This document shows positions 17,397 to 25,578 of a stretch of DNA of 30,553 nucleotides, piece after piece (within the stretch, counting starts at the first letter, position 1; each line of letters opens with the position of its first letter). A program made the translations under genes and the position numbers. The DNA is from Alphaproteobacteria bacterium (GTDB lineage: Bacteria > Pseudomonadota > Alphaproteobacteria > GCA-2731375): contig CBDDBZ010000010.1 in assembly GCA_965225945.1 (NCBI GenBank), forward strand, positions 1 through 30,553. Direction: 5' to 3'. The notes beneath the pieces were generated by a model that was not told the DNA's origin, searched no databases, and worked only from the letters and a program-made list of their open reading frames with translations.

Positions 17397-17612
17397 ATGG
17401 CACCCATGGATGGCGATATCGAGACCATCGTCCTCGACGTTTACCCTTGGGCCGAGCCCACGGACGAGCAAAGGCGTTTGTTCGATGCGCTAACGCCCGA
17501 GGAAAAGCGCCGCTTGATCGATTCCGCCATCGAAGAGGGGTTTGCAAGCCCCATCTCCGAAAAATCCATGTCCGATGTCATTGCGGAGGCTAAAGCCGAC
17601 CGTCGCACATGA
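17397..17612 (+). CDS. Small ParD-like antitoxin candidate
   Basis: C-terminus LIDSAIEEGFASPISEKSMSDVIAEAKA resembles ParD toxin-binding tails. The stop overlaps ATGA of a downstream start (MNYRKT) that is cut by an IS fragment. Confidence 0.5.
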   Translation: MAPMDGDIETIVLDVYPWAEPTDEQRRLFDALTPEEKRRLIDSAIEEGFASPISEKSMSDVIAEAKADRRT

Positions 17613-17627
17613 ATTACAGGAAAACGC

Positions 17628-18077
17628 TTCGCCAGGTGGCGATAGCTTTTCGAGACCCAAAGCAACGGTCGTTCCGGATCGCCCCGCGTGGCCGGCGCCA
17701 CAAGACGCTCGAGCGCTTCCAGCAAACCCGGTTGCTTCGCCGTCTCCGGCTTGCGGCCACCGCCCGGACGCCGCAACCGACCGTCCCCGCACGACGGCCT
17801 CTTGCCGTCGAGTTCGGCGAGACCGCGCCCGATCCTCGAGCGGGCAATCCCGGTGATCTCGCTCACCAGCTCGATCCCGCCCCATCCCACCGTGCGGGCT
17901 TCTACCGCCGCGAAGAGCCGCCGTCCCTTCTCGTCGAGGTGCCGATGAAGCGCCTCGTAACGATATCTGATGGCTTCAGTATCCTGCATACACCATATAT
18001 AGCGCAAATCCGGGAAAACCGGAATCCCTTGCCAACAGACCGTGGCAATGCGATTCAACTGTTCTGTGACGGGCCCT
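17628..18077 (-). mobile_element. ISAzo13-family IS fragment (left end plus N-terminal third of the transposase, ATG 17989)
   Basis: LDEKGRRLFAAVEA..GWGGI, RRPGGGRK, TRGDPERPLLWVSKS motifs; putative end GGGCCCGTCACAGAAC near 18077. The 3' part is deleted. Confidence 0.85.
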
Positions 18078-18143
18078 TAGAGCGCTTGAGGGGGGTGCTG
18101 TCCTAAATCGGGGTGATGTGTCCTAATTTGAAGTTCCGGGACG

Positions 18144-18809
18144 CTATTCACCCAAAAGGCTCTCAACAGCGGCCAACCAATCTAGGTGCATATCCGTGGT
18201 TAGTGGTGCGGTTGAATAAAATCGATTACTTGCATAAGAAACGTCAAGCCTTCGTTCTATCGCGAATTGGGTATTGGTATAAGGAGGTAACGTCGTAGGG
18301 TCGGAGCTGAACGATAGATTCTGTACATTAAACATGACCTCATGGTTATATGATTTCTTCAACATCTCCGAAGACAAGTCGCTTATCGCACTAAAAGACC
18401 TAATTGCGCTATCTATTGGTTTGTCGAACTCGACCACCACCAAGCTAGTGTAGGTTTTCCGGTACGGCGTGATCAGTTCACGCAACTTAAAGTTTGTTGT
18501 TGCCCAGTTCATCAAATCATTCAAAATTGTGTCTGCGTAATGTGTATTTCGCGACGCAATTATGATGCCATCATTATACAGCCCCATTTCTTCAATTGTA
18601 ATTGTTTCTTCGCCTTCATACAGTAAGCCACCTTTAAATTCTACACCTTTGGTGACATCTTGTGAATAATTTAATGGGAATTGAGCGAACTGATATCGCG
18701 CCTTAATTGCTTCAACTAGGGAAGGCACATGGAAGCCCGACACTGGGCGCAATTCTTCCATTACCATTAGTTGGAGAATGCGACCTTGATCTGTGGCGAT
18801 CAACTTCAT
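18144..18809 (-). CDS. Hypothetical protein (221 aa), third gene of the toxin-HTH operon
   Basis: Long ORF in AT-richer DNA, ATGA overlap with the HTH gene stop, mixed alpha/beta pattern. No family recognised. Confidence 0.8.
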   Translation of the reverse strand: MKLIATDQGRILQLMVMEELRPVSGFHVPSLVEAIKARYQFAQFPLNYSQDVTKGVEFKGGLLYEGEETITIEEMGLYNDGIIIASRNTHYADTILNDLMNWATTNFKLRELITPYRKTYTSLVVVEFDKPIDSAIRSFSAISDLSSEMLKKSYNHEVMFNVQNLSFSSDPTTLPPYTNTQFAIERRLDVSYASNRFYSTAPLTTDMHLDWLAAVESLLGE

Positions 18810-19375
18810 CCAGCCACCCTCAATGCGCTCCCAGTCGCACTTCGACCCGTTTCCTTATGGCGTTGAACCGCAGATGCCTTGTGACTTTCTGGGCTCCTGT
18901 TGTGAAATTCACCACCGGATACAATCCTTTTCGTGTCGACAAAAAATGCCTTGAGTGCTCCATCGGCCAACTTCTGTCTTTCTTCTTCTGCTGCTTTATC
19001 AACGATTTCTTGTGAAAAAGCAGATGGATGGACCGCCGCATCTGACATATCGGACGTGAGGCGCAAAAATGTACCATGATCGACGAATCTGATGACAACA
19101 GCGACATCGCATTTTGCGGCCACATCAAAGGCAGTCTGTAGAGCCCACTTCCCATAGTTCGGGTCTTCAAGTCGAGAAATAACACTTTGAGGCTTTTCTA
19201 AAACCTTGCCGAACTGGTCTTGAGTCATGTCGCCACGAAGCGCGCGCACCTGTCGCGCTAGAAATTGTCGAGTATGTTGAGCAACGTAGGCATCACGATA
19301 CGTCTTGTCGACAAACTTCTCCGCAAGGCGTTTTCCTCTAGGGGAAGGTGCAGGGCGCTGCTCGTCGTGCATCAT
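18806..19375 (-). CDS. XRE-family HTH protein, HigA-like antitoxin with extended C-terminus
   Basis: GAGGAG RBS before ATG 19375. QVRALRGDMTQDQFGKVLEKPQSVISRLEDPNYG HTH, then DVAVVIRFV, then a long polar tail. Confidence 0.85.
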   Translation of the reverse strand: MMHDEQRPAPSPRGKRLAEKFVDKTYRDAYVAQHTRQFLARQVRALRGDMTQDQFGKVLEKPQSVISRLEDPNYGKWALQTAFDVAAKCDVAVVIRFVDHGTFLRLTSDMSDAAVHPSAFSQEIVDKAAEEERQKLADGALKAFFVDTKRIVSGGEFHNRSPESHKASAVQRHKETGRSATGSALRVAG

Positions 19376-19751
19376 GTTCAACTCCTCGTCGGCGATGGTG
19401 GGCCGTTACGCATGCGGCCCCATAGTCACGGCTACCCCTTGGCTTCTCGAACCCAAAGAGAAGCGTAAATGCGCCGCGCCACGGCCCTTCAAACCCAAGG
19501 ATTCGGAAATGACGATTCTCCACATCAACAAGGATCTCGGTCAGCCCTCGGCAGGCGCCGCGAAGACGCTTGACTTGAGGTAGATCATTCCAATCGTCCT
19601 CATATTCCAAGCTCTCAAGAGCGGCATCGATCGCCGCCCTGATCTGGCCTGGGAGGGAGTCGTACCAGACATGAAGGCCCCGACCAGATTTCGGTAGAGT
19701 ATAGCATCTCAAATCGGGAATGTCATCGCTTTTTTGCGATACAAGCTGCAT
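19338..19751 (-). CDS. RelE/HigB (Gp49-like) toxin candidate
   Basis: Pattern SGR....WYDSL....AAIDAALE.L.....VKRLRG..GLTEI......HFRILGF......FTLLFGFEK typical of the RelE/ParE superfamily; lies upstream of and overlaps the HTH gene. Start could be TTG 19712. Confidence 0.75.
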   Translation of the reverse strand: MQLVSQKSDDIPDLRCYTLPKSGRGLHVWYDSLPGQIRAAIDAALESLEYEDDWNDLPQVKRLRGACRGLTEILVDVENRHFRILGFEGPWRGAFTLLFGFEKPRGSRDYGAACVTAHHRRRGVEHDARRAAPCTFP

Positions 19752-19789
19752 TCGGACTTGACGCCTAATCGCAAATTTACGATATTAGG
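19725..19789. promoter_or_regulatory. Two operator-like palindromes overlapping a rightward sigma70-like promoter
   Basis: ATCGCTTTTTTGCGAT (19725-19740) and ATCGCAAATTTACGAT (19768-19783); TTGACG-N17-GATATT at 19758-19786. Confidence 0.55.
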
Positions 19790-19859
19790 ACACTCGGTAA
19801 ATGAAATGGCCCATCCCCCAGGGCTCAAAACCAAGGAAATGGGCCACTTCAGACCGAGT

Positions 19860-19932
19860 GCCCCGGTCGTCTACTGGCATAGGACGCCCGAATTACAATC
19901 GAGAAACGCGGGTTCAAGCCCCGTCCGGGGCG
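19860..19932 (+). tRNA. tRNA-like gene, 73 nt, anticodon TAC (Val) on a tRNA-Glu-type body; possibly a pseudo-tRNA
   Basis: Cloverleaf: acceptor GCCCCGG/CCGGGGC plus G73; D arm GTCT-ACTGGCATA-GGAC; anticodon arm CCCGA-ATTACAA-TCGAG (one C.A mismatch); variable AAAC; T arm GCGGG-TTCAAGC-CCCGT. No encoded CCA. Confidence 0.75.
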
Positions 19933-20020
19933 CTCAACAGAGTGGGGCTAACGCTGCTGGAACAGCGCCAGCCCCGGATCAAAACCCCAGGGATTGGCCC
20001 CCTAAAGTCATGATCGCGAT

Positions 20021-21267
20021 CACAGTACACGACTCGTTCATGCTGGCTTTGGCCTGGGCACCTGGACTGGTGGTTTTCCGGGGACGAGGAAACGAATCAG
20101 CTCAATGGCTTGACGCCTGTCGATAGGATTGACGAGCTGTCGCCTTATCCACTCGAAACCGTATCGGAAGATGGATTTTGCCATCCTTTTGTGGGTTTTG
20201 AGGCGGATCGGCTCGGCCTCGTGGAGCCAATCGCCGACTTTGTGCGCCCAGCAGAAGCCGACTTTGTGCGCCCAGCAGAAGGTGATGGAAAGGACGGCGG
20301 TGAGCTTGGAGATGCGCTCCGGGTCGGTCATGTGGGTGTCTTCGAGGTTGAAGCCACGGGTTTTCAAGGCGGCGAAGAGGGTCTCGATTTGCCAGCGCTG
20401 GGCGTAGATGGCCAAGGCCTCCTCGGGCGCGTCGTTGGTCACGACGATCAACAGTTCGCCGGTCTTGAGATGGAGCGCGGCGACGAAGACGGGCCTGGCC
20501 TTGGGTTTTCTGGCCTCCGAGAGGCGCCTGGCGTTGGAGAGGATGCGGCTTTCCCCGGGTTTGAGGTCGCGAAACAGCTCCCTCGCCTTGACCATGCGAC
20601 CACGCGTGTTGGCGATCTTGATGTTGGATCGGATGCGGATGTGAAAGGGGATGGCCTTTTCCTGCAACCATGCCAGCCAGGCGTCGCCGATGAATTCCCG
20701 GTCGGCCAGGAGGCTGGCGATCTTGTCGACCCCGAAGAGCCGGAGGACGTGTTCGAGGATCGCGATCCGCTCCTTGGTATTGGAATTGCCCGCCTTGTCG
20801 AGCACCCGCCAGCACACGGGAATGGCGATGGCGCGGTTGACGATGCCGATCATCAAGATGTTGACGTCGCGGCGACCCAGCCGCCAGTTGGTCCGGTCCA
20901 TGGTCAGCCGCCACGGCCCCGCCTGGAGCCCCATCATCGCGACCAGGAACTCGGCGAGGCGATCGTAATCGAAATCGACTTGCTCGAAAAACCGTTGCAG
21001 GCGCCGATAGTTGGAGCTGGATCGCGCGCGCCCCGGAAAGTGGCAGGCCAAGTGAGAGAGGTTCACCGTCCGGGCGACGAACACGCCGAAGACCAAGACG
21101 CAAAGGCTCTCCAGACGGCTCTTGCGAAAGGCGAAGCCGCATCGTAGCGTCTCACGCAGGGCGTTGATCGGGTTGTCTCGCATGATTTCCCTCTTGACTC
21201 GTCGTGGAGTGAATCGGGAATCCTACAACCTTTTCAACGTCCTACGTAAATGCCGTCGTGTACCATG
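20021..21267 (-). mobile_element. IS4-family insertion sequence
   Basis: TIR CACAGTACACGAC / CATGGTACACGAC; 9-bp TSD GATCGCGAT at 20012-20020 and 21268-21276. Confidence 0.92.
20038..21183 (-). CDS. IS4-family transposase with an in-frame 8-aa duplication
   Basis: MDRTNW, LADREFIG, YAQRWQIETLFAALK (YREK motif); 24-bp tandem duplication at 20233-20280. Confidence 0.92.
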   Translation of the reverse strand: MRDNPINALRETLRCGFAFRKSRLESLCVLVFGVFVARTVNLSHLACHFPGRARSSSNYRRLQRFFEQVDFDYDRLAEFLVAMMGLQAGPWRLTMDRTNWRLGRRDVNILMIGIVNRAIAIPVCWRVLDKAGNSNTKERIAILEHVLRLFGVDKIASLLADREFIGDAWLAWLQEKAIPFHIRIRSNIKIANTRGRMVKARELFRDLKPGESRILSNARRLSEARKPKARPVFVAALHLKTGELLIVVTNDAPEEALAIYAQRWQIETLFAALKTRGFNLEDTHMTDPERISKLTAVLSITFCWAHKVGFCWAHKVGDWLHEAEPIRLKTHKRMAKSIFRYGFEWIRRQLVNPIDRRQAIELIRFLVPGKPPVQVPRPKPA

Positions 21268-21332
21268 GATCGCGATAGTAAATATAGCGATTTTCGGAGT
21301 CAGGCGCCAGTCCCGCATTATGGATTGGCCCC

Positions 21333-21536
21333 ATGAACATCCTTCCATTCGAAAAACAGGTTGCCGCCATCGCCACCTTGACCGAGGGCGTGAGCATCCG
21401 CGCGACGGAGCGCCTGACCGACATTCACCGCGACACCATCATGCGCCTTAGCGTCCGTGTCGGCGAGGGCTGTGGTCGGCTGCATGACCATCTGATCCGT
21501 GACGTCCAGGTCGCGCATATCGAACTGGACGAGATT
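21333..21536 (+). pseudogene. IS1-family-like transposase, N-terminal fragment
   Basis: MNILPFEKQVAAIATLTEGVSIRATERLTDIHRDTIMRL...IELDEI (HTH plus first catalytic D), cut at the IS256 end. Confidence 0.8.
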
Positions 21537-22868
21537 GAGCAACCTGATGTGTGGAAATTCGGAACGCCGTTGATCAGTCATCCTCTGCTTTCCAAGTGAT
21601 GTAGGGTTTTTCGGTGGTTTCCCATTTCTCGTCGATTTCGACGAGGATGGCGGTGACCAGACGTTCGAGCGAGGCCTCGTTGGGAAAGACCCTGACCTTT
21701 ACGGTGCGGCGCTTGATCTCCTGCTGGATGGATCGCTCCATGGGGTTCGAGGTTCGCATGCGCTTTTGGTGGCGCTCGGGCAGGGCGAAGACGGCGAGGC
21801 CCTCGGGGATCGCCGTCTCCAGCCAATCGGCGAGCTTGGGGGCGCTGTCGCGGTAGGCCGCCACCAGATGGCCCAGCTCGGCCTCGGCGGCCTTGCCGTC
21901 GGCGGCGTTCCAGACCCGGCGCAGCTCCTTGCCGATGGCCTTTCGGATGGCGAGGTTGGGGGCGTGATGGATGGCGTTTTGAGCCAGATGGTACTGACAG
22001 CGCTGCCAGACGGCGCCGCCGAGGACGGCCTTGCGCGCGGCGCCGAGGCCTGGATGATCATCGGAAACGATATAGGCGACACCGCGCATGCCACCGGCAA
22101 CCAGGGTCTCCAGGAAGGCGCGCCAGTGCACTTCGGCCTCGGAGAGCGCACAGGAAACACCGAGCACCCGGCGGCGCTGGTCGGGGCCGATGCCGATCAC
22201 CGAGAGCACGGCGGCGTCGCGCACCACGCCACCCTCTCGGACTTTCTCATAGCGCGCGTCGAGGAGCAGGTAGCGGATCTCGCCCAGCGGCCGGTTGCAC
22301 CAGGCATCCAGCTCCCCATCCAAGAGCTTGGCGGCGCGGCTGACCTGGCTCGACGACAGGCTCTCCAGGCCGAACTCGCGCATCACCGCCTCGGCGTCAC
22401 GGGTGGAGACGCCTTTGATATACATCTCCGCCACGGCCAGCATGACAGCGCGGCAGGAGCGCCGTCCGCGCTCCAGGGCTTGGGGGTAAAAAGGCGCCTC
22501 ATGACCGGCGGTCTTGGGAACCTCGAGCCTCACCGTACCGGCCGGGGTGTCGATCTTCTTGGGTCTGGTGCCGTTGGCGTATCCCCGCCGCTCGGGCGTG
22601 CGCTCATAGTGGCCGGCGCCCAAGAACCTCTCCCGCTCGATCCGCATGGCGAGATTGAAAAGGCCGGCGAAGACCGTCGCCATGTTCTCGCTACCGCCTT
22701 CGATCAATTGTTCCACCAAAGCCTCGACAGCGCTATCCTGGTCTTTCCGCATACTGGTTCTCCATGTTTGTTTGGACGCTTTCATGGATAACCAAAATGA
22801 CGGATCGCCCCGCGCCGGGGTATACCCCGGCGCGGGGCGAAGCCAAATTTCCAGACCTCACGCTACAC
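21537..22868 (-). mobile_element. IS256-family insertion sequence
   Basis: Imperfect IRs GAGCAACCTGATGTGTGGAAATTCGG / GTGTAGCGTGAGGTCTGGAAATTTGG. No TSD; it replaces the middle of the host transposase. Confidence 0.85.
21574..22752 (-). CDS. IS256-family transposase
   Basis: MYIKGVSTR, LLDARYEKVR, VSDDHPGL, WQRCQYH, RTSNPMER motifs. Confidence 0.93.
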   Translation of the reverse strand: MRKDQDSAVEALVEQLIEGGSENMATVFAGLFNLAMRIERERFLGAGHYERTPERRGYANGTRPKKIDTPAGTVRLEVPKTAGHEAPFYPQALERGRRSCRAVMLAVAEMYIKGVSTRDAEAVMREFGLESLSSSQVSRAAKLLDGELDAWCNRPLGEIRYLLLDARYEKVREGGVVRDAAVLSVIGIGPDQRRRVLGVSCALSEAEVHWRAFLETLVAGGMRGVAYIVSDDHPGLGAARKAVLGGAVWQRCQYHLAQNAIHHAPNLAIRKAIGKELRRVWNAADGKAAEAELGHLVAAYRDSAPKLADWLETAIPEGLAVFALPERHQKRMRTSNPMERSIQQEIKRRTVKVRVFPNEASLERLVTAILVEIDEKWETTEKPYITWKAEDD

Positions 22869-23124
22869 AAGCTTCACCCGGCTCACCAATGGCTTTTCGA
22901 AGAAGCTACGGAACCACGAGGCGGCGATCTCGCTGTTTATCAGCCACTACAACCTATGCCGGGTTCACGAGACCATCCGCATGACTCCGGCCATGATGCT
23001 CGGCGTCACGGATCATATCTGGACCATTGCCGAGTTGATCGAAGCCGCGACCAGCCCGGATGCTCCCGCGCCCGTTGGCCGTCGTGTCGGGCGATTCCGC
23101 GTGATCGATGGTGGGCAGGCGTGA
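22869..23124 (+). pseudogene. IS1-family-like transposase, C-terminal fragment
   Basis: FTRLTNGFSKKLRNHEAAISLFISHYNLCRVHETIRMTPAMMLGVTDHIWTIAELI...RFRVIDGGQA*, in a frame not listed in the ORF track. Confidence 0.8.
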
Positions 23125-23187
23125 TATCATGACTGCCTTCGCGGCGCCTCGCTTTTCATGGCGTGGCTTCGCGACGTATCGCAACGC

Positions 23188-23223
23188 GACGCAGGGCCCC
23201 GCTTCGGCGGGGCTCTTTGCGTC
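23188..23223 (+). terminator. Stem-loop with CTTCGG tetraloop, putative terminator inside the element's right end
   Basis: GACGCAGGGCCCCG-CTTCGG-CGGGGCTCTTTGCGTC. Confidence 0.55.
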
Positions 23224-23270
23224 AAGGTGTCCTAGGTTCAGATTTTGTGTGCCCTAGTTCGGACAGTACC

Positions 23271-23391
23271 AATTGATGCGTTGGGCGGTATTATCTGCTC
23301 TAATGATGCAGTGGTAGCGGAAGTAAATGGGCATACTTCAAATCGAGGCTTGCAAACCAAAGTCATCAAGGGACCAAGGTGGTACGTGTGA
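23271..23391 (+). pseudogene. darT: darT (DUF4433 DNA ADP-ribosyltransferase toxin) 3' remnant
   Basis: [39 protein letters not shown] resembles the DarT C-terminus (P.WYF). TGATG overlap with the darG start; begins at the IS1-like element end. Confidence 0.7.
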
Positions 23392-23982
23392 TGATCACAT
23401 TTACTAAAGGTAACTTGTTAGAAGCGAACGTCGATGCGCTGGTGAACACTGTCAACACGGTTGGCGTGATGGGTAGGGGCGTCGCTCTCATGTTCAAGGA
23501 AGCATTCCCTGAGAATTTTGAAGCATATGCCGCTGCATGCAAGAATAAGGAAATGCAGCTTGGGCGAATGTTCGTGACCGAACAACTTGATCTTCTTGGT
23601 CCTAAATGGATTATCAACTTTCCAACAAAAAGGCATTGGCGCTACCCATCCAAGTTGGAATGGATCGAGGATGGTCTGAAAGATTTGAAGCGTGTGATCG
23701 ACGAGAAAAATATCCGATCAATCGTAATACCGCCCCTAGGTAGTGGAAACGGGAAGCTTAATTGGAACGAAGTTAGAGAATTAATTGAGGGAGTATTGAG
23801 TGATCTTATCGATACAGAAGTCATCGTGTATGAACCAACCGGCAAGTATCAGAATGTCGTAAAGCGTAAGGGCGTCCAACAATTAACACCACCACGTGCC
23901 TTGATCGCTGAACTTGTGCGCCAGTACTGGATGCTAGGCATAGAGTGCTCAATATTGGAAATCCAAAAACTAGCATATTTTC

Positions 23983-25578
23983 GTAACTGCCCAGGTAGCT
24001 GATTTCGATGAGGCTGCGGATTGGGTCTCTGGGGGCAGATTTTGTGGGTTTGGGGCGCTGACGGCCTAGATTTCGTTTGACAGAGGGTGGTTGGTCGATT
24101 CTAAGGATTCGATGGATAGGGATGTTCTTGCCTTTTTGTCGAAAGACGAGCTGATCGATGTGGTGCTGGCCCAAGGGTCGCGGCTCGCCGAGTTCGAACT
24201 CCGGCTTGGTGAACTCGAGCGCCGGCTTGGCCTGAACAGCACGAACAGCGGCAAGCCACCGTCGAGCGATGGATTGAACAAGCCACCGGCGGGTAAAAAG
24301 AAGCGCACCAGGAGCCTCCGTAAGAAATCGGCCCGCAAGCCGGGCGGGCAAAAGGGCCACAAGGGCGAGACCCTGCGCCAAGTCGCCGATCCCGACGCCA
24401 CCGTCGACCATTATCCCGAGACGTGCCAGTGGTGTGGTTCGGGATTGACGCCGGATATGGCTACCGGCCATGGGGCCCGCCAGGTTTTCGATCTACCCGA
24501 GCCCCGGCCCCTGGTGGTCACGGAGCATCGGGCGCATCGCTGCCGTTGCGGGCATTGCGGCACGTACACTCGGGCTTCTTTTCCCGTCGCCATCACCGGC
24601 CCGGTTCAATACGGCGCTCGGATCGGAGCCATGGTGGTCTACCTGTCGCACTACCAACTCCTGCCCGAGGACCGCCTGGCTGAATTGATGAAGGATCTGT
24701 TCGGGGCGGAACTGTCTCCGGCGAGCCTCGCGCGGAGGGGCGGGAACAGCGCCGAGTCCGTCCAAGGCGTCGTCGATGTGATCCGCGAACTGGTGAAATC
24801 GGCGCCGGTCAAGCACATGGACGAGACCGGCTTGCGGATCGCCGGGCGGACCCAATGGTTGCACGTCGCCTCGACCGCGCGGTTGACCTTCTATCGGGTC
24901 TCGGAGCGACGCGGCAGCCTGCTCGGCGGAGTCGGCGGCATCGTCGTCCATGACCACTGGAAGCCGTACTTTACGATGGAGGGCGTACGGCACGCGCTGT
25001 GCAACGCCCATCACCTGCGCGAGTTGCAAGCCCTGATCGAGATCGAGAAGGAGGGCTGGGCACGCAAGATGCAGAGACTATTGCGCCGCGCCTGCCACGC
25101 GGTAAATCTCGCCCGGGAGCGGGGCGTGGCGCTGAAACCAGGCCTCGTCGAGCGCTTCCGAGGGTGTTACGACGCGATCACGGCCGAGGGCATCGCCTTT
25201 CACGAGGCACAACCTCCTCTTGCGCCCAGATCGAGCAAGGCCAAGCGCCGGGGAAGCAAGCCGCGCCGCACCGGGCACAACCTTCTCCGGCGCCTTCAGA
25301 CACACAAGGAAGACGCGCTGCGCTTCCTCATCAATTTCGCCGTGCCGTTCACCAACAATCAGGCCGAGCAGGACGGGCGCATGATGAAGGTCAAGCAGAA
25401 AATCTCCGGCGGCTTCCGTAGCCAGAAAGGCGCCGAAGACTTTGCCACCGTCCGCGGCTTCATCTCGACCGCCAGAAAACAGGGCTGGAACATCATCCAG
25501 GCGCTCATGGAAAATCCCGAAACCCTGATCGAGCGTCTCCACGCCGCCTAAAAGGCCACCATGTACCTGGGCAGTTAC
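23983..25578 (+). mobile_element. IS66-family IS (single-ORF, ISBst12-type)
   Basis: Perfect 15-bp TIR GTAACTGCCCAGGTA; 8-bp TSD ATATTTTC at 23975-23982 and 25579-25586. Confidence 0.95.
24112..25551 (+). CDS. IS66-family transposase
   Basis: NSTNSGKPPSSD, KPGGQKGHKG, Zn finger, MDETG, HD, LCNAHHLREL, FTNNQAEQDGRMMKVKQKISGGFRS. Confidence 0.93.
   Translation: MDRDVLAFLSKDELIDVVLAQGSRLAEFELRLGELERRLGLNSTNSGKPPSSDGLNKPPAGKKKRTRSLRKKSARKPGGQKGHKGETLRQVADPDATVDHYPETCQWCGSGLTPDMATGHGARQVFDLPEPRPLVVTEHRAHRCRCGHCGTYTRASFPVAITGPVQYGARIGAMVVYLSHYQLLPEDRLAELMKDLFGAELSPASLARRGGNSAESVQGVVDVIRELVKSAPVKHMDETGLRIAGRTQWLHVASTARLTFYRVSERRGSLLGGVGGIVVHDHWKPYFTMEGVRHALCNAHHLRELQALIEIEKEGWARKMQRLLRRACHAVNLARERGVALKPGLVERFRGCYDAITAEGIAFHEAQPPLAPRSSKAKRRGSKPRRTGHNLLRRLQTHKEDALRFLINFAVPFTNNQAEQDGRMMKVKQKISGGFRSQKGAEDFATVRGFISTARKQGWNIIQALMENPETLIERLHAA

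Follow-up and report, generated by a model that had tools for sequence, protein, structure and literature searches.

The window analysed here is the whole 30,553-nucleotide (nt) stretch of contig CBDDBZ010000010.1 from an Alphaproteobacteria bacterium (assembly GCA_965225945.1), and it contains at 19860-19932 a 73-nt cloverleaf with a valine anticodon. With a probability of roughly 0.6, we read this cloverleaf as the tRNA-like gene of a decayed transposon that occupies 18094-23270 and belongs to the IS1 family of insertion sequences (IS), its product being a tRNA-like RNA of the transposon core and not a standard decoding tRNA. The established part of this reading is that the gene has a conserved family of homologues, that transposon ends and target duplications enclose members of the family, that the gene has a fixed place upstream of the transposase, that UUAC, A73 and C74C75 are kept in the family, and that the cloverleaf and hairpin 1 (a hairpin in the leader downstream) have been preserved through compensatory changes.

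The cloverleaf on the forward strand matches the tRNA family of Rfam (RF00005) over its full length with 47.1 bits (E 3e-07, gathering score 29), with one non-standard pair, which belongs to the anticodon stem, and the only tRNA called by ARAGORN in the window is the same gene (19860-19933, forward strand, Val, anticodon tac). The acceptor stem GCCCCGG/CCGGGGC is followed by U8 and C9, and the D stem GUCU/GGAC (G10-C25, U11-A24, C12-G23 and U13.G22) encloses a D loop of ACUGGCAUA, with G26 present. The anticodon stem CCCGA/UCGAG has a C28.A42 mismatch and carries the loop AUUACAA (A32, U33, UAC and A37); the variable loop is AAAC, of 4 nt and without residue 47; the T arm GCGGG-UUCAAGC-CCCGU has a canonical T loop; and the 3' end consists of G73 and then CUC in place of CCA. 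Every structural feature listed in a preliminary description of this locus was found again in a direct parse. The near-universal core positions of tRNAs, U8, A14, G18G19, U33, a purine at 37, U54-U55-C56 and A58, are all held by this copy.

For the identity of the molecule, positions read by two aminoacyl-tRNA synthetases were compared. Valine identity elements, according to the sections of PMC9976931 cited here, are A35, C36 and A73, with G20 and G45 as minor elements; the same sections count U35 among the strong determinants of glutamyl-tRNA synthetase (GluRS) and name A73 as a valine determinant that is not needed for glutamate identity. Of the positions of valyl-tRNA synthetase (ValRS), the window copy has A35 and C36 but G73 instead of A73, and in the numbering of the parse C20 and A45 replace the minor elements. 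The augmented D helix of the tRNA-Glu type (U11-A24, U13.G22, A46 and no residue 47) is complete. In the anticodon-loop set of GluRS (U34/U35/C36/A37), U34, C36 and A37 are present and A35 replaces U35, and among the weak GluRS acceptor elements G1-C72 is present, with C2-G71 where U2-A71 is expected.

The tRNA-like gene is always found upstream of, and co-oriented with, a gene for an IS1-family transposase, and both are inside an element with GGTGCTGTCCTAATTAGG-type inverted repeats. The family comprises the window and 11 related loci (G019, L190, L191, L192, L235, L237, L268, L269, L270, L275 and L277), and its core, which lies between terminal inverted repeats of about 20 bp, consists of the tRNA-like gene and the co-oriented IS1-type DDE transposase, with a structured leader about 170-240 nt long between them. 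In L190 an intact transposase of 293 amino acids (aa) is encoded downstream, which matches Pfam DDE_Tnp_IS1 with 45.4 bits (cut-off 24.1) and NCBIfam transpos_IS1 with 62.8 bits, under the cut-off of 100. Full-length transposases are present also in L269, L275 and L277; L268 and L270 have frameshifts, and the window, G019, L192 and L237 have transposase remnants. Perfect 8-bp target duplications flank the complete elements of L268, L269 and L270, which are 2.3-2.9 kb long, and in G019 a 2.5-kb block lies between 18-nt inverted repeats that are 94% complementary, with an imperfect target duplication (7/8). Terminal repeats were found at both ends in these four loci and in the window, and the end repeat is also present at the expected right ends of L190 and L192.

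The association with the transposase was recovered by a search in which the tRNA was not in the query. The end-repeat search of 401 genomes of the class with three mismatches was noisy, since 71 of the 401 genomes had a match and a reversed control gave about as many, and only matches with two mismatches or fewer, or in pairs, were kept, giving 14 stretches from 12 genomes. Near-full-length transposases are present in six of the 14 stretches, and in five of these six elements (L268, L269, L270, L275 and L277) a tRNA-like gene lies 150-240 nt upstream in the same orientation. Other placements of the gene were rejected. Ends guessed at first for L190 (602-618 versus 1570-1586), which left the tRNA outside the element, were dropped when the true repeats with 8-bp duplications were found; insertion of an IS beside tRNA genes need not be assumed, because the tRNA-like gene is inside the element; and a genomic island integrated at a host tRNA was ruled out, because the downstream 381-aa gene encodes an IS4 DDE transposase and not an integrase, and because the canonical tRNA-Val(TAC) and tRNA-Glu(TTC) of the host sit elsewhere. 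A further copy of the end repeat with one mismatch was observed on another contig of the host genome (G000 C35:282058-282075, forward strand), and this may be a lone transposon end; neither an IS1-like transposase nor a tRNA was found on that contig.

The homologues were used for examining which parts of the gene are conserved. In G019, which is of another genus in the same taxonomic family, the tRNA together with about 75 nt of 3' flank is 72% identical to the window copy, and TAC, A73 and CCA are present. The module is present in only two of the 33 genomes of the taxonomic family, which are also the only genomes of its order in the collection, by a pattern search allowing three mismatches, and an anticodon-blind covariance model (R1) gave more than 120 bits in the same genomes only for the host (G000) and G019, the next score being 63. 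Members of the transposon family score 45-132 bits with R1, and members other than the window score 45-55 bits with the tRNA model of Rfam. A metagenome scan requiring TTAC gave three copies (L190, L191 and L192), all of which have the same 3' extension. The preliminary description had considered a private mutation from TTC to TAC in a dead tRNA-Glu; this is contradicted by the homologues, which carry TAC, and no TTC-bearing copy of the module was found in the 33 genomes by either R1 or the three-mismatch pattern.

Conservation of TAC, for which a homologue search had been proposed, was found: UUAC is in the anticodon loop of 10 of the 12 loci, and of six among the eight loci found without the anticodon in the query. 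Five of the 12 loci came from queries containing the tRNA itself, and three of these queries required TTAC. A35 and C36 are kept together in 10/12 loci, A73 in 9/12 and C74C75 also in 9/12, followed by A in four, by G in four and by U in one. C55 replaces the near-universal U55 in eight of the 12 loci. At position 37, the seven regular UUAC loops have A, U, A, A, C, C and G, a pyrimidine in three cases. Anticodon loops of 8 nt or of irregular form are present in L268 (8 nt), L275, L277 and L235; the L235 copy, with the loop CUCCCAAG, is homologous to the copies in L275 and L277, and the latter two have irregular anticodon arms and yet full-length transposases. These drifting positions (37, 55 and the loop geometry) are among those that matter for modification and decoding.

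Pairing in the cloverleaf is kept while its sequence changes. In the first five loci 92.6% of stem cells pair and seven pairs are changed on both sides, a level reached by none of 500 shuffles, and slid controls gave 0-1. The window and G019, at 72% identity, differ by compensatory changes on both sides of four pairs, and no further pair has been broken. Across the family, pair 1:72 is G-C, U-A or C-G, pair 49:65 has four forms, and the D-stem pair 12:23 was switched from C-G to G-C in L269 and L270. Since pairing has been kept by compensatory change, neutral decay of a dead gene does not account for the pattern. The C28.A42 mismatch is restricted to the window and G019 and is not a family feature, and an anticodon-free pattern requiring it gave no match in metagenomes and none in viral contigs.

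The leader following the tRNA-like gene contains hairpin 1, GGAUCA, a small GGG..CCC hairpin and AUAUAGC. The sequence of hairpin 1 varies across the family and its pairing is retained; RNAalifold gave 15 pairs for five loci, three of them with compensatory changes, and in a wider set two-sided changes are found in six of 13 pairs. The wider alignment was fitted to the model and includes non-member bodies (the tRNA-Gly of L192 and the gene of L237), its cloverleaf counts are inflated, and it was used for hairpin 1 only. On the 5' side of the tRNA-like gene, five loci without a toxin-antitoxin (TA) cassette (G019, L190, L270, L275 and L277) share another leader of about 140 nt, in which, by eye, a AGGAGGGU motif is followed by a covarying hairpin (GCCGCUACC/GGUAGCGGC versus GCCGCUUCC/GGAAGCGGC) and then by AAUCGGCU. 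An ordinary tRNA-Gly(UCC) was observed at L192 2143-2216 (reverse strand), with its 3' end about 100 nt from the TA side of the transposon.

The distribution of the module beyond these loci was also surveyed. Neither the plasmids nor the phages searched by BLAST had a match to the module. Two viral contigs (L162 7423-7455 and L163 305-337) have, within a phage tRNA cluster, a look-alike of the 5' half (GUCGUCUA..AGGACGCCCGAGUUACAA) with the same CCCGA stem arm and then an insert; no complete tRNA was found there by ARAGORN or Rfam, R1 gave only 22-31 bits, and the look-alike was not accepted as a member. More distant IS1-like transposases, 39-49% identical and present in 16 of 400 other genomes of the phylum that were searched, do not carry the module. 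Beside one of them, 39% identical, an odd tRNA was observed about 130 nt upstream and co-oriented (L202 1298-1373, G770:C14); it has a short variable arm, the anticodon GCU (Ser), C33, C55, A73 and CCA, scores 59.4 bits with Rfam, and has a GGGGATTGGCG hairpin immediately ahead of it. Another tRNA, with a long variable arm and the anticodon GCG (Arg), lies at L201 2917-3011 (G785, flagged as unpublished), about 590 nt upstream of an IS1-like transposase and co-oriented with it.

Within the tRNA set of its own genome, the window cloverleaf ranks 44th among 45 Rfam matches, and it is beyond chance, yet a weak tRNA. CCA ends 44 of the 52 ARAGORN calls of the host genome, and the window gene is among the eight exceptions, the other seven of which have no Rfam support. 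A canonical tRNA-Val(TAC) and a tRNA-Glu(TTC) belong to the set of the host, and the latter is the host tRNA nearest to the window body (identical at 54 of 74 positions). When 401 class genomes were searched by BLAST with the module, four tRNAs matched, all of them ordinary tRNA-Glu(TTC), which have in common with the window module a variable loop NAAC and a T arm of GCGGGUUC..CCCGC; other class-wide matches of 19-35 nt were taken as chance. A search of the genome collection for a Glu-type D arm combined with TTAC gave at least 118 stretches; all titles among the matches listed are archaeal, and ARAGORN calls tRNA-Val(TAC) in 53 of the 80 archaeal loci among them. The preliminary description had taken the D-arm and variable-loop features as determinants of tRNA-Glu. 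These features are present, but the D arm is not exclusive to tRNA-Glu, because archaeal tRNA-Val(TAC) carries the same U11-A24/U13.G22 D arm.

The origin of the body was compared with the anticodon omitted. The family resembles archaeal tRNA-Val at 0.70-0.74 in the 5' half and 0.60-0.64 in the 3' half, and bacterial tRNA-Glu at 0.69-0.72 and 0.62-0.74, both comparison sets having been chosen by similarity; the values for the tRNA-Val genes of the host are clearly lower (0.53-0.62). R1 gives 60-62 bits to bacterial tRNA-Glu and 52-53 bits to archaeal tRNA-Val, and with the missing residue 47 these scores let us lean to a Glu/Gln-type origin. In the host genome, tRNA-Gln(CUG) (G000 C33:273191-273264) also has the Glu-type augmented D arm, with U1-A72, and tRNA-Gln(UUG) is without it; the genome also contains three genes from the GluRS/GlnRS catalytic family (C36/C34, loci L216-L218), whose frames encode 575, 484 and 291 aa. 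Recognition of the D helix by a GluRS may be indicated by this D arm and the three genes.

The cargo carried by members of the family differs: a three-gene TA cassette, a family of proteins of about 280-350 aa without a known domain, small proteins and, by eye, a methyltransferase-like frame with an NPPF motif and an HNH nuclease-like frame. The window carries the TA cassette, and the ribonuclease-type toxin noted earlier beside the cloverleaf was recognized again as a predicted toxin of RelE/HigB fold, the product of 19338-19751. Its AlphaFold model (pLDDT 74, built on three sequences) has as best Foldseek matches the HigB structures 6af4, 7awk and 7nbu with TM scores of 0.61-0.65, and the Pfam Gp49 match is just below the cut-off; a sequence profile of three toxins found no solved relative, and the cargo proteins had no match in NCBIfam or PADLOC. 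The window antitoxin has a weak helix-turn-helix (HTH) match; its homologues in L191 and L192, with 36-41% identity, are clearly recognized by HTH_3 (E 1e-9 and 5e-7). Homologues of the third gene follow the antitoxin in L191 (43% identity), L236 and L237, and the third gene is present in four loci.

Five loci (the window, L191, L192, L235 and L237) have a homologous cassette next to, and divergent from, the tRNA-like gene. A toxin-profile search of 400 other class genomes, in which the tRNA was not in the query, gave three further loci; in L235 and L237 a distance of 75-125 nt separates the toxin start from the divergent tRNA-like gene, whose place is taken in L236 by a degenerate RNA remnant. 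Toxins that are only 26-40% identical retain this divergent arrangement. In all five loci where the cassette adjoins a called tRNA-like gene, a sigma-70-like promoter with a palindrome faces the tRNA-like gene, and outside the window the distance from the end of the -10 hexamer to the gene is 53-73 nt; we infer that the palindrome is an operator. A promoter-like site at 19726-19698 on the reverse strand was judged spurious, as it lies inside the toxin reading frame. The link to a toxin operon proposed earlier thus stands for five loci and fails for seven, G019, L190, L268, L269, L270, L275 and L277, where the tRNA-like gene has no TA cassette. Because of these seven loci, the association of the two is explained by carriage on a shared transposon, and the linkage as it appears from these arrangements does not imply a joint function.

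For the role of the RNA, the comparison of the loci inclines us, by a small degree, to a molecule that would be transcribed from its own promoter, cut by tRNA-processing enzymes and used by the transposon as a structural or regulatory RNA of tRNA-like form and not as a decoder. Its likeliest role would be to act on the expression of the downstream transposase. The RNA may be valylated, since the kept positions are those that ValRS reads. A tRNA-like RNA is favoured over a passenger tRNA-Val because, over the 12 loci, the ValRS positions and the CC end are kept and position 37, position 55 and the loop geometry drift, and the host's own canonical tRNA-Val(TAC) speaks against the need for a decoder. 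The earlier proposal of a tRNA mimic in place of an ordinary tRNA is plausible, since the family deviates at positions 55 and 37. It is possible, though doubtful, that the IS1-type family needs a tRNA-like RNA of its own, a cloverleaf on a Glu/Gln-type body in which just the nucleotides recognized by ValRS and by the enzymes of tRNA end processing (UUAC, A73 and CC) would be retained, with the covarying hairpin leader behind it, and that processing or charging of this RNA would control the expression of the transposase and, where carried, of the TA cassette.

Several points weigh against the reading as a core tRNA-like RNA. The counts over all 12 loci overstate conservation, and conserved UUAC, A73 and CC(A/G) are equally expected of a real, if odd, tRNA-Val; U55 is canonical in the window, L190 and L268, and a purine is present at position 37 in four of the seven regular loops. 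The fixed place beside the transposase is no proof of a role in transposition, as a favoured passenger tRNA gene could be kept there too. In L237 the leader is the same and the tRNA body ahead of it is another one, with a UUU loop, and the body is thus exchangeable; L274 has a transposase and no tRNA-like gene, only a remnant of the leader being seen by eye. The origin of the body is ambiguous, with bacterial tRNA-Glu and archaeal tRNA-Val(TAC) about equally similar. As for transcription, a 249-nt contig over 19801-20050 in metatranscriptome run X17 has a depth of 19.3, compared with 3.5-3.8 for contigs of the TA cassette, and is a weak hint; the evidence from RNA runs consists of contigs and not reads, DNA carry-over is possible, and the X17 contig takes in about 30 nt of a multi-copy IS. 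RNA run X14 covers the TA cassette and has no contig over the tRNA, uncovered parts being uninformative. The runs containing the stretch include sponge metagenomes.

The alternative closest to ordinary tRNA biology is a working passenger tRNA-Val(UAC) with a Glu/Gln-derived or archaeal-type body, charged by ValRS through A35/C36/A73 and decoding GUA for low-G+C mobile DNA in a high-G+C host. We regard it as unlikely. The presence of UUAC in 10/12, of A73 in 9/12 and of CCA or CCG in 8/12 loci agrees with it, in accordance with the valine elements in the cited sections of PMC9976931; the D arm shared with archaeal tRNA-Val(TAC) and the compensatory changes that preserve the cloverleaf do so as well. 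GTA makes up 10 of the 56 valine codons (17.9%) in four genes (the cargo genes of the window plus the darG fragment just beyond the right end repeat), versus 7.2% in 2419 long open reading frames of the genome, but this count is small and is explained by G+C content alone. A functional decoder is difficult to reconcile with C55 in 8/12 loci, with a pyrimidine at 37 in three of seven regular loops and with irregular or 8-nt loops accompanying full-length transposases (L275 and L277); the window copy moreover lacks G20 and G45 (having C20 and A45), has G73 and no CCA, and a canonical tRNA-Val(TAC) is already available in the host. If, instead, the RNA were the partner of the HigB/HigA-like module, as a decoy, RNA antitoxin or regulator, and the transposon just the carrier of both, the result of the tRNA-blind toxin search (two of three loci with a divergent tRNA-like gene and one with a remnant), the arrangement kept among diverged toxins and the palindrome in all five loci with the cassette beside a called tRNA-like gene would be accounted for. 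This is improbable in our judgement: seven loci have the gene and no cassette, the palindrome is perhaps just the operator of the divergent TA promoter, and solved HigB-type toxins act on ribosome-bound mRNA (as in the title of 7nbu) and not on tRNA.

A missense tRNA placing glutamate at valine codons, proposed in the preliminary description, would require recognition of the augmented D helix and of the lack of residue 47 by a GluRS, in parallel to tRNA-ProX of Streptomyces. The window copy does have U11-A24, U13.G22, A46, the 4-nt variable loop, C36 and A37; one GluRS1 from bacteria reportedly charges tRNAs only if they have the augmented D stem and lack residue 47 (PMC9976931, in the sections cited); tRNA-Gln(CUG) of the host has this D arm in a genome with three GluRS-family genes; and dual-identity tRNAs exist in bacteria, according to the cited part of PMC10404621. 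Even so, the proposal is not supported and we consider it very improbable, as A35 replaces the strong determinant U35, U2-A71 is absent, the family keeps A35-C36 and A73, the last of which the cited sections of PMC9976931 do not require for glutamate, and replacement of Val by Glu is expected to be harmful. The element has no synthetase gene, no synthetase domain was found among the scanned neighbours, and the three GluRS-family genes of the host are on other contigs. Finally, the gene might be a functionless relic acquired once by the transposon and carried since, which would suit the many members that break tRNA rules and the fact that most elements are broken, four with transposase remnants and two with frameshifts. 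We give this explanation just as little probability, since it would have to accommodate the double compensatory changes between the window and G019, the pairing of hairpin 1 kept under sequence change, and the retention of UUAC and A73-CC while the cargo turns over.

The features of the window element are summarized in Table 1. Its transposase was destroyed by insertion of IS4 and IS256 elements and by an internal deletion, and G+C drops from 0.64 to 0.46 at the left end. The IS4 element is multi-copy, its end sequence matching 16 other places in the genome, and depth jumps and loose ends are found near 20021 and 21268. At 20233 in the window, all four compared runs contain IS4 copies without 24 bases that the window copy has. 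The window element is not flanked by a visible target duplication. Because the family has A73 and CC where this copy has G73 and CUC, and because its transposase is dead and its end repeats are worn, the window copy is most likely a decaying and at best weakly active member of the family. The earlier suggestion of a decaying tRNA-Glu was therefore right as to decay, seen in G73, CUC, the dead transposase and the degenerate repeats, and wrong as to tRNA-Glu.

Table 1. Features of the transposon at 18094-23270 in the window (positions refer to the window)
Feature	Position	Strand	Remarks
Left terminal inverted repeat GGTGCTGTCCTAAATCGG	18094..18111	+	2 differences from the 18-nt repeat of G019
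Subterminal motif GTGTCCTAATT	18118-18128		after the left repeat
Third cargo gene, 221 aa	18144..18809	-	no match in Pfam, NCBIfam or PADLOC
HigA-like XRE HTH antitoxin, 191 aa	18806..19381	-	Pfam HTH_31 weak, E 0.02
HigB/RelE-fold toxin (predicted), 137 aa	19338..19751	-	Pfam Gp49 23.2 bits (cut-off 23.9)
Sigma-70-like promoter TTGACG-17 nt-GATATT	19758..19786	+	faces the tRNA-like gene
Palindrome ATCG-N8-CGAT	19768-19783		between the two promoter hexamers
tRNA-like gene	19860..19932	+	Glu/Gln-type body, loop AUUACAA, G73, no CCA; ARAGORN, Rfam
Hairpin 1	19943..19976	+	13-14 pairs; loop CUGGAA; not followed by a U tract
Leader, first part: GGATCA, GGGATTGGCCCCC at 19990-20002, ATGATCGC	19977..20019	+	alignments and motif search; cut by IS4
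IS4-family insertion (transposase 20038-21183)	20020..21268	-	Pfam DDE_Tnp_1; boundaries approximate
Leader, remainder: AATATAGC; second GGATTGGCCCC motif at 21321-21333 just before ATG	21269..21332	+	motif search
IS1-family transposase, N-terminal remnant, aa 1-68	21333..21536	+	tblastn with L190, 69% identity
IS256 (Mutator) insertion (transposase 21574-22785)	21533..22871	-	Pfam Transposase_mut E 1e-86, depth and loose ends; boundaries approximate
IS1-family transposase, C-terminal remnant, about aa 215-293	22872..23123	+	54-58% identical to L190; frame 0 FTRLTNGFSKKLRNH...
Right terminal inverted repeat GGTACTGTCCGAACTAGG (read inward)	23253..23270	-	3 differences from the repeat

Outside the element, several sequences were observed that complete the picture of this part of the contig. 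Just beyond the right end, 23379-24002 on the forward strand encodes about 200 of the 338 profile positions of a DarG-type macrodomain antitoxin, an N-terminal fragment recognized by NCBIfam antitoxin_DarG (314 bits) and by Pfam Macro. This fragment is apparently truncated at the start of an IS66-family element (with its transposase at 24091-25551), and its neighbourhood showed no darT gene. To the left of the transposon, in the stretches 17441-18058 (reverse strand) and 17609-18106 (forward strand), there is a frame with a weak match to the beginning of a DDE transposase of ISAZ013 type (17.5 bits, below the cut-off). With the IS4, IS256 and IS66 elements, it makes up a pile-up of mobile elements of about 8 kb, where G+C is lower, with 0.46-0.54 at 18-20 kb and 0.50 at 23-24 kb.

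In comparison with known systems, the family is like the IS1 family in having a DDE_Tnp_IS1 transposase, terminal inverted repeats of about 18-22 bp and target duplications of 8 bp; IS1 yields duplications of 8-9 bp, and a longer IS1 subgroup is listed in ISfinder. It differs from IS1 in the tRNA-like gene and the structured leader of about 170-240 nt that are fixed upstream of the transposase, in a left end that is 0.7-1.7 kb away with variable cargo between, and in a score under the cut-off of the NCBIfam IS1 model. The predicted toxin fold matches HigB, including HigB1 of M. tuberculosis (Mtb), an XRE antitoxin follows the toxin, and a third gene is present in four loci, as in three-gene HigB1-HigA1 systems. 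The third gene of HigB1-HigA1 in M. tuberculosis is a chaperone, whereas that of the window has no match to SecB or any other family. A literature search, which did not extend to supplementary files, found no description of an IS with a tRNA-like gene in its core.

Among RNAs encoded by or resembling parts of mobile elements, the bridge RNA of IS110 is, in the sections of PMC11208160 cited here, likewise a structured RNA region encoded beside the recombinase gene and conserved with it; IS110 has an RNA-guided DEDD recombinase, whereas the present family has a DDE transposase, ordinary inverted repeats and a cloverleaf, and no guide role is indicated, complementarity to ends or targets having been compared by eye only. 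The tRNA-ProX genes (ProA, ProN and ProT) of Streptomyces and Kitasatospora, as presented in the cited part of PMC10404621, similarly combine a body and an anticodon of different acceptors, have non-canonical positions, and are named by annotation tools after the anticodon. In tRNA-ProX the C1:G72 of the body is kept, elements of the synthetase belonging to the anticodon are absent and a ProRSx gene is adjacent (PMC10404621), whereas our family keeps A35, C36 and A73 and has no synthetase gene near its loci. Closer similarity to another acceptor family than to the tRNA-Val of the host is a property shared with alloacceptor remolding and anticodon shifts; those described in the cited parts of PMC3923123 and PMC4783518 are eukaryotic nuclear or mitochondrial, unlike a bacterial transposon with a non-canonical core in a host that keeps its normal tRNA-Val. 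The valine-accepting tRNA-like structure of turnip yellow mosaic virus is, in the cited sections of PMC9976931, also a non-decoding tRNA-like RNA of a selfish element that keeps A35, C36 and a discriminator, A or C in the virus; it is the pseudoknotted 3' end of an RNA genome, whereas the present case is a plain cloverleaf gene in DNA, whose product may be charged.

For annotation, 18094-23270 becomes a dead composite of one IS1-type transposon and two later IS insertions, and its tRNA-like gene is not to be counted in the decoding set of the host. Automatic annotation would give a second tRNA-Val, and by eye the gene could be read as a mutated tRNA-Glu; it is neither. The gene marks a transposon family with a tRNA-like gene in its core, characterized by conserved UUAC in the loop and A73-CC at the end, and its passengers vary. 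If transposition or its regulation involves the RNA, a tRNA mimic joins the short list of IS-encoded RNAs, and if the RNA is charged, it would be a mobile non-standard acceptor of valine (or glutamate), with a bearing on shifts of tRNA identity in bacteria. Should the family need this RNA, as the doubtful extension of our reading has it, the RNA would correspond in bacteria to those tRNA-like structures of plant viruses that accept valine and would be a new class of IS-encoded RNA, and transposition would be tied to the translational state of the cell.

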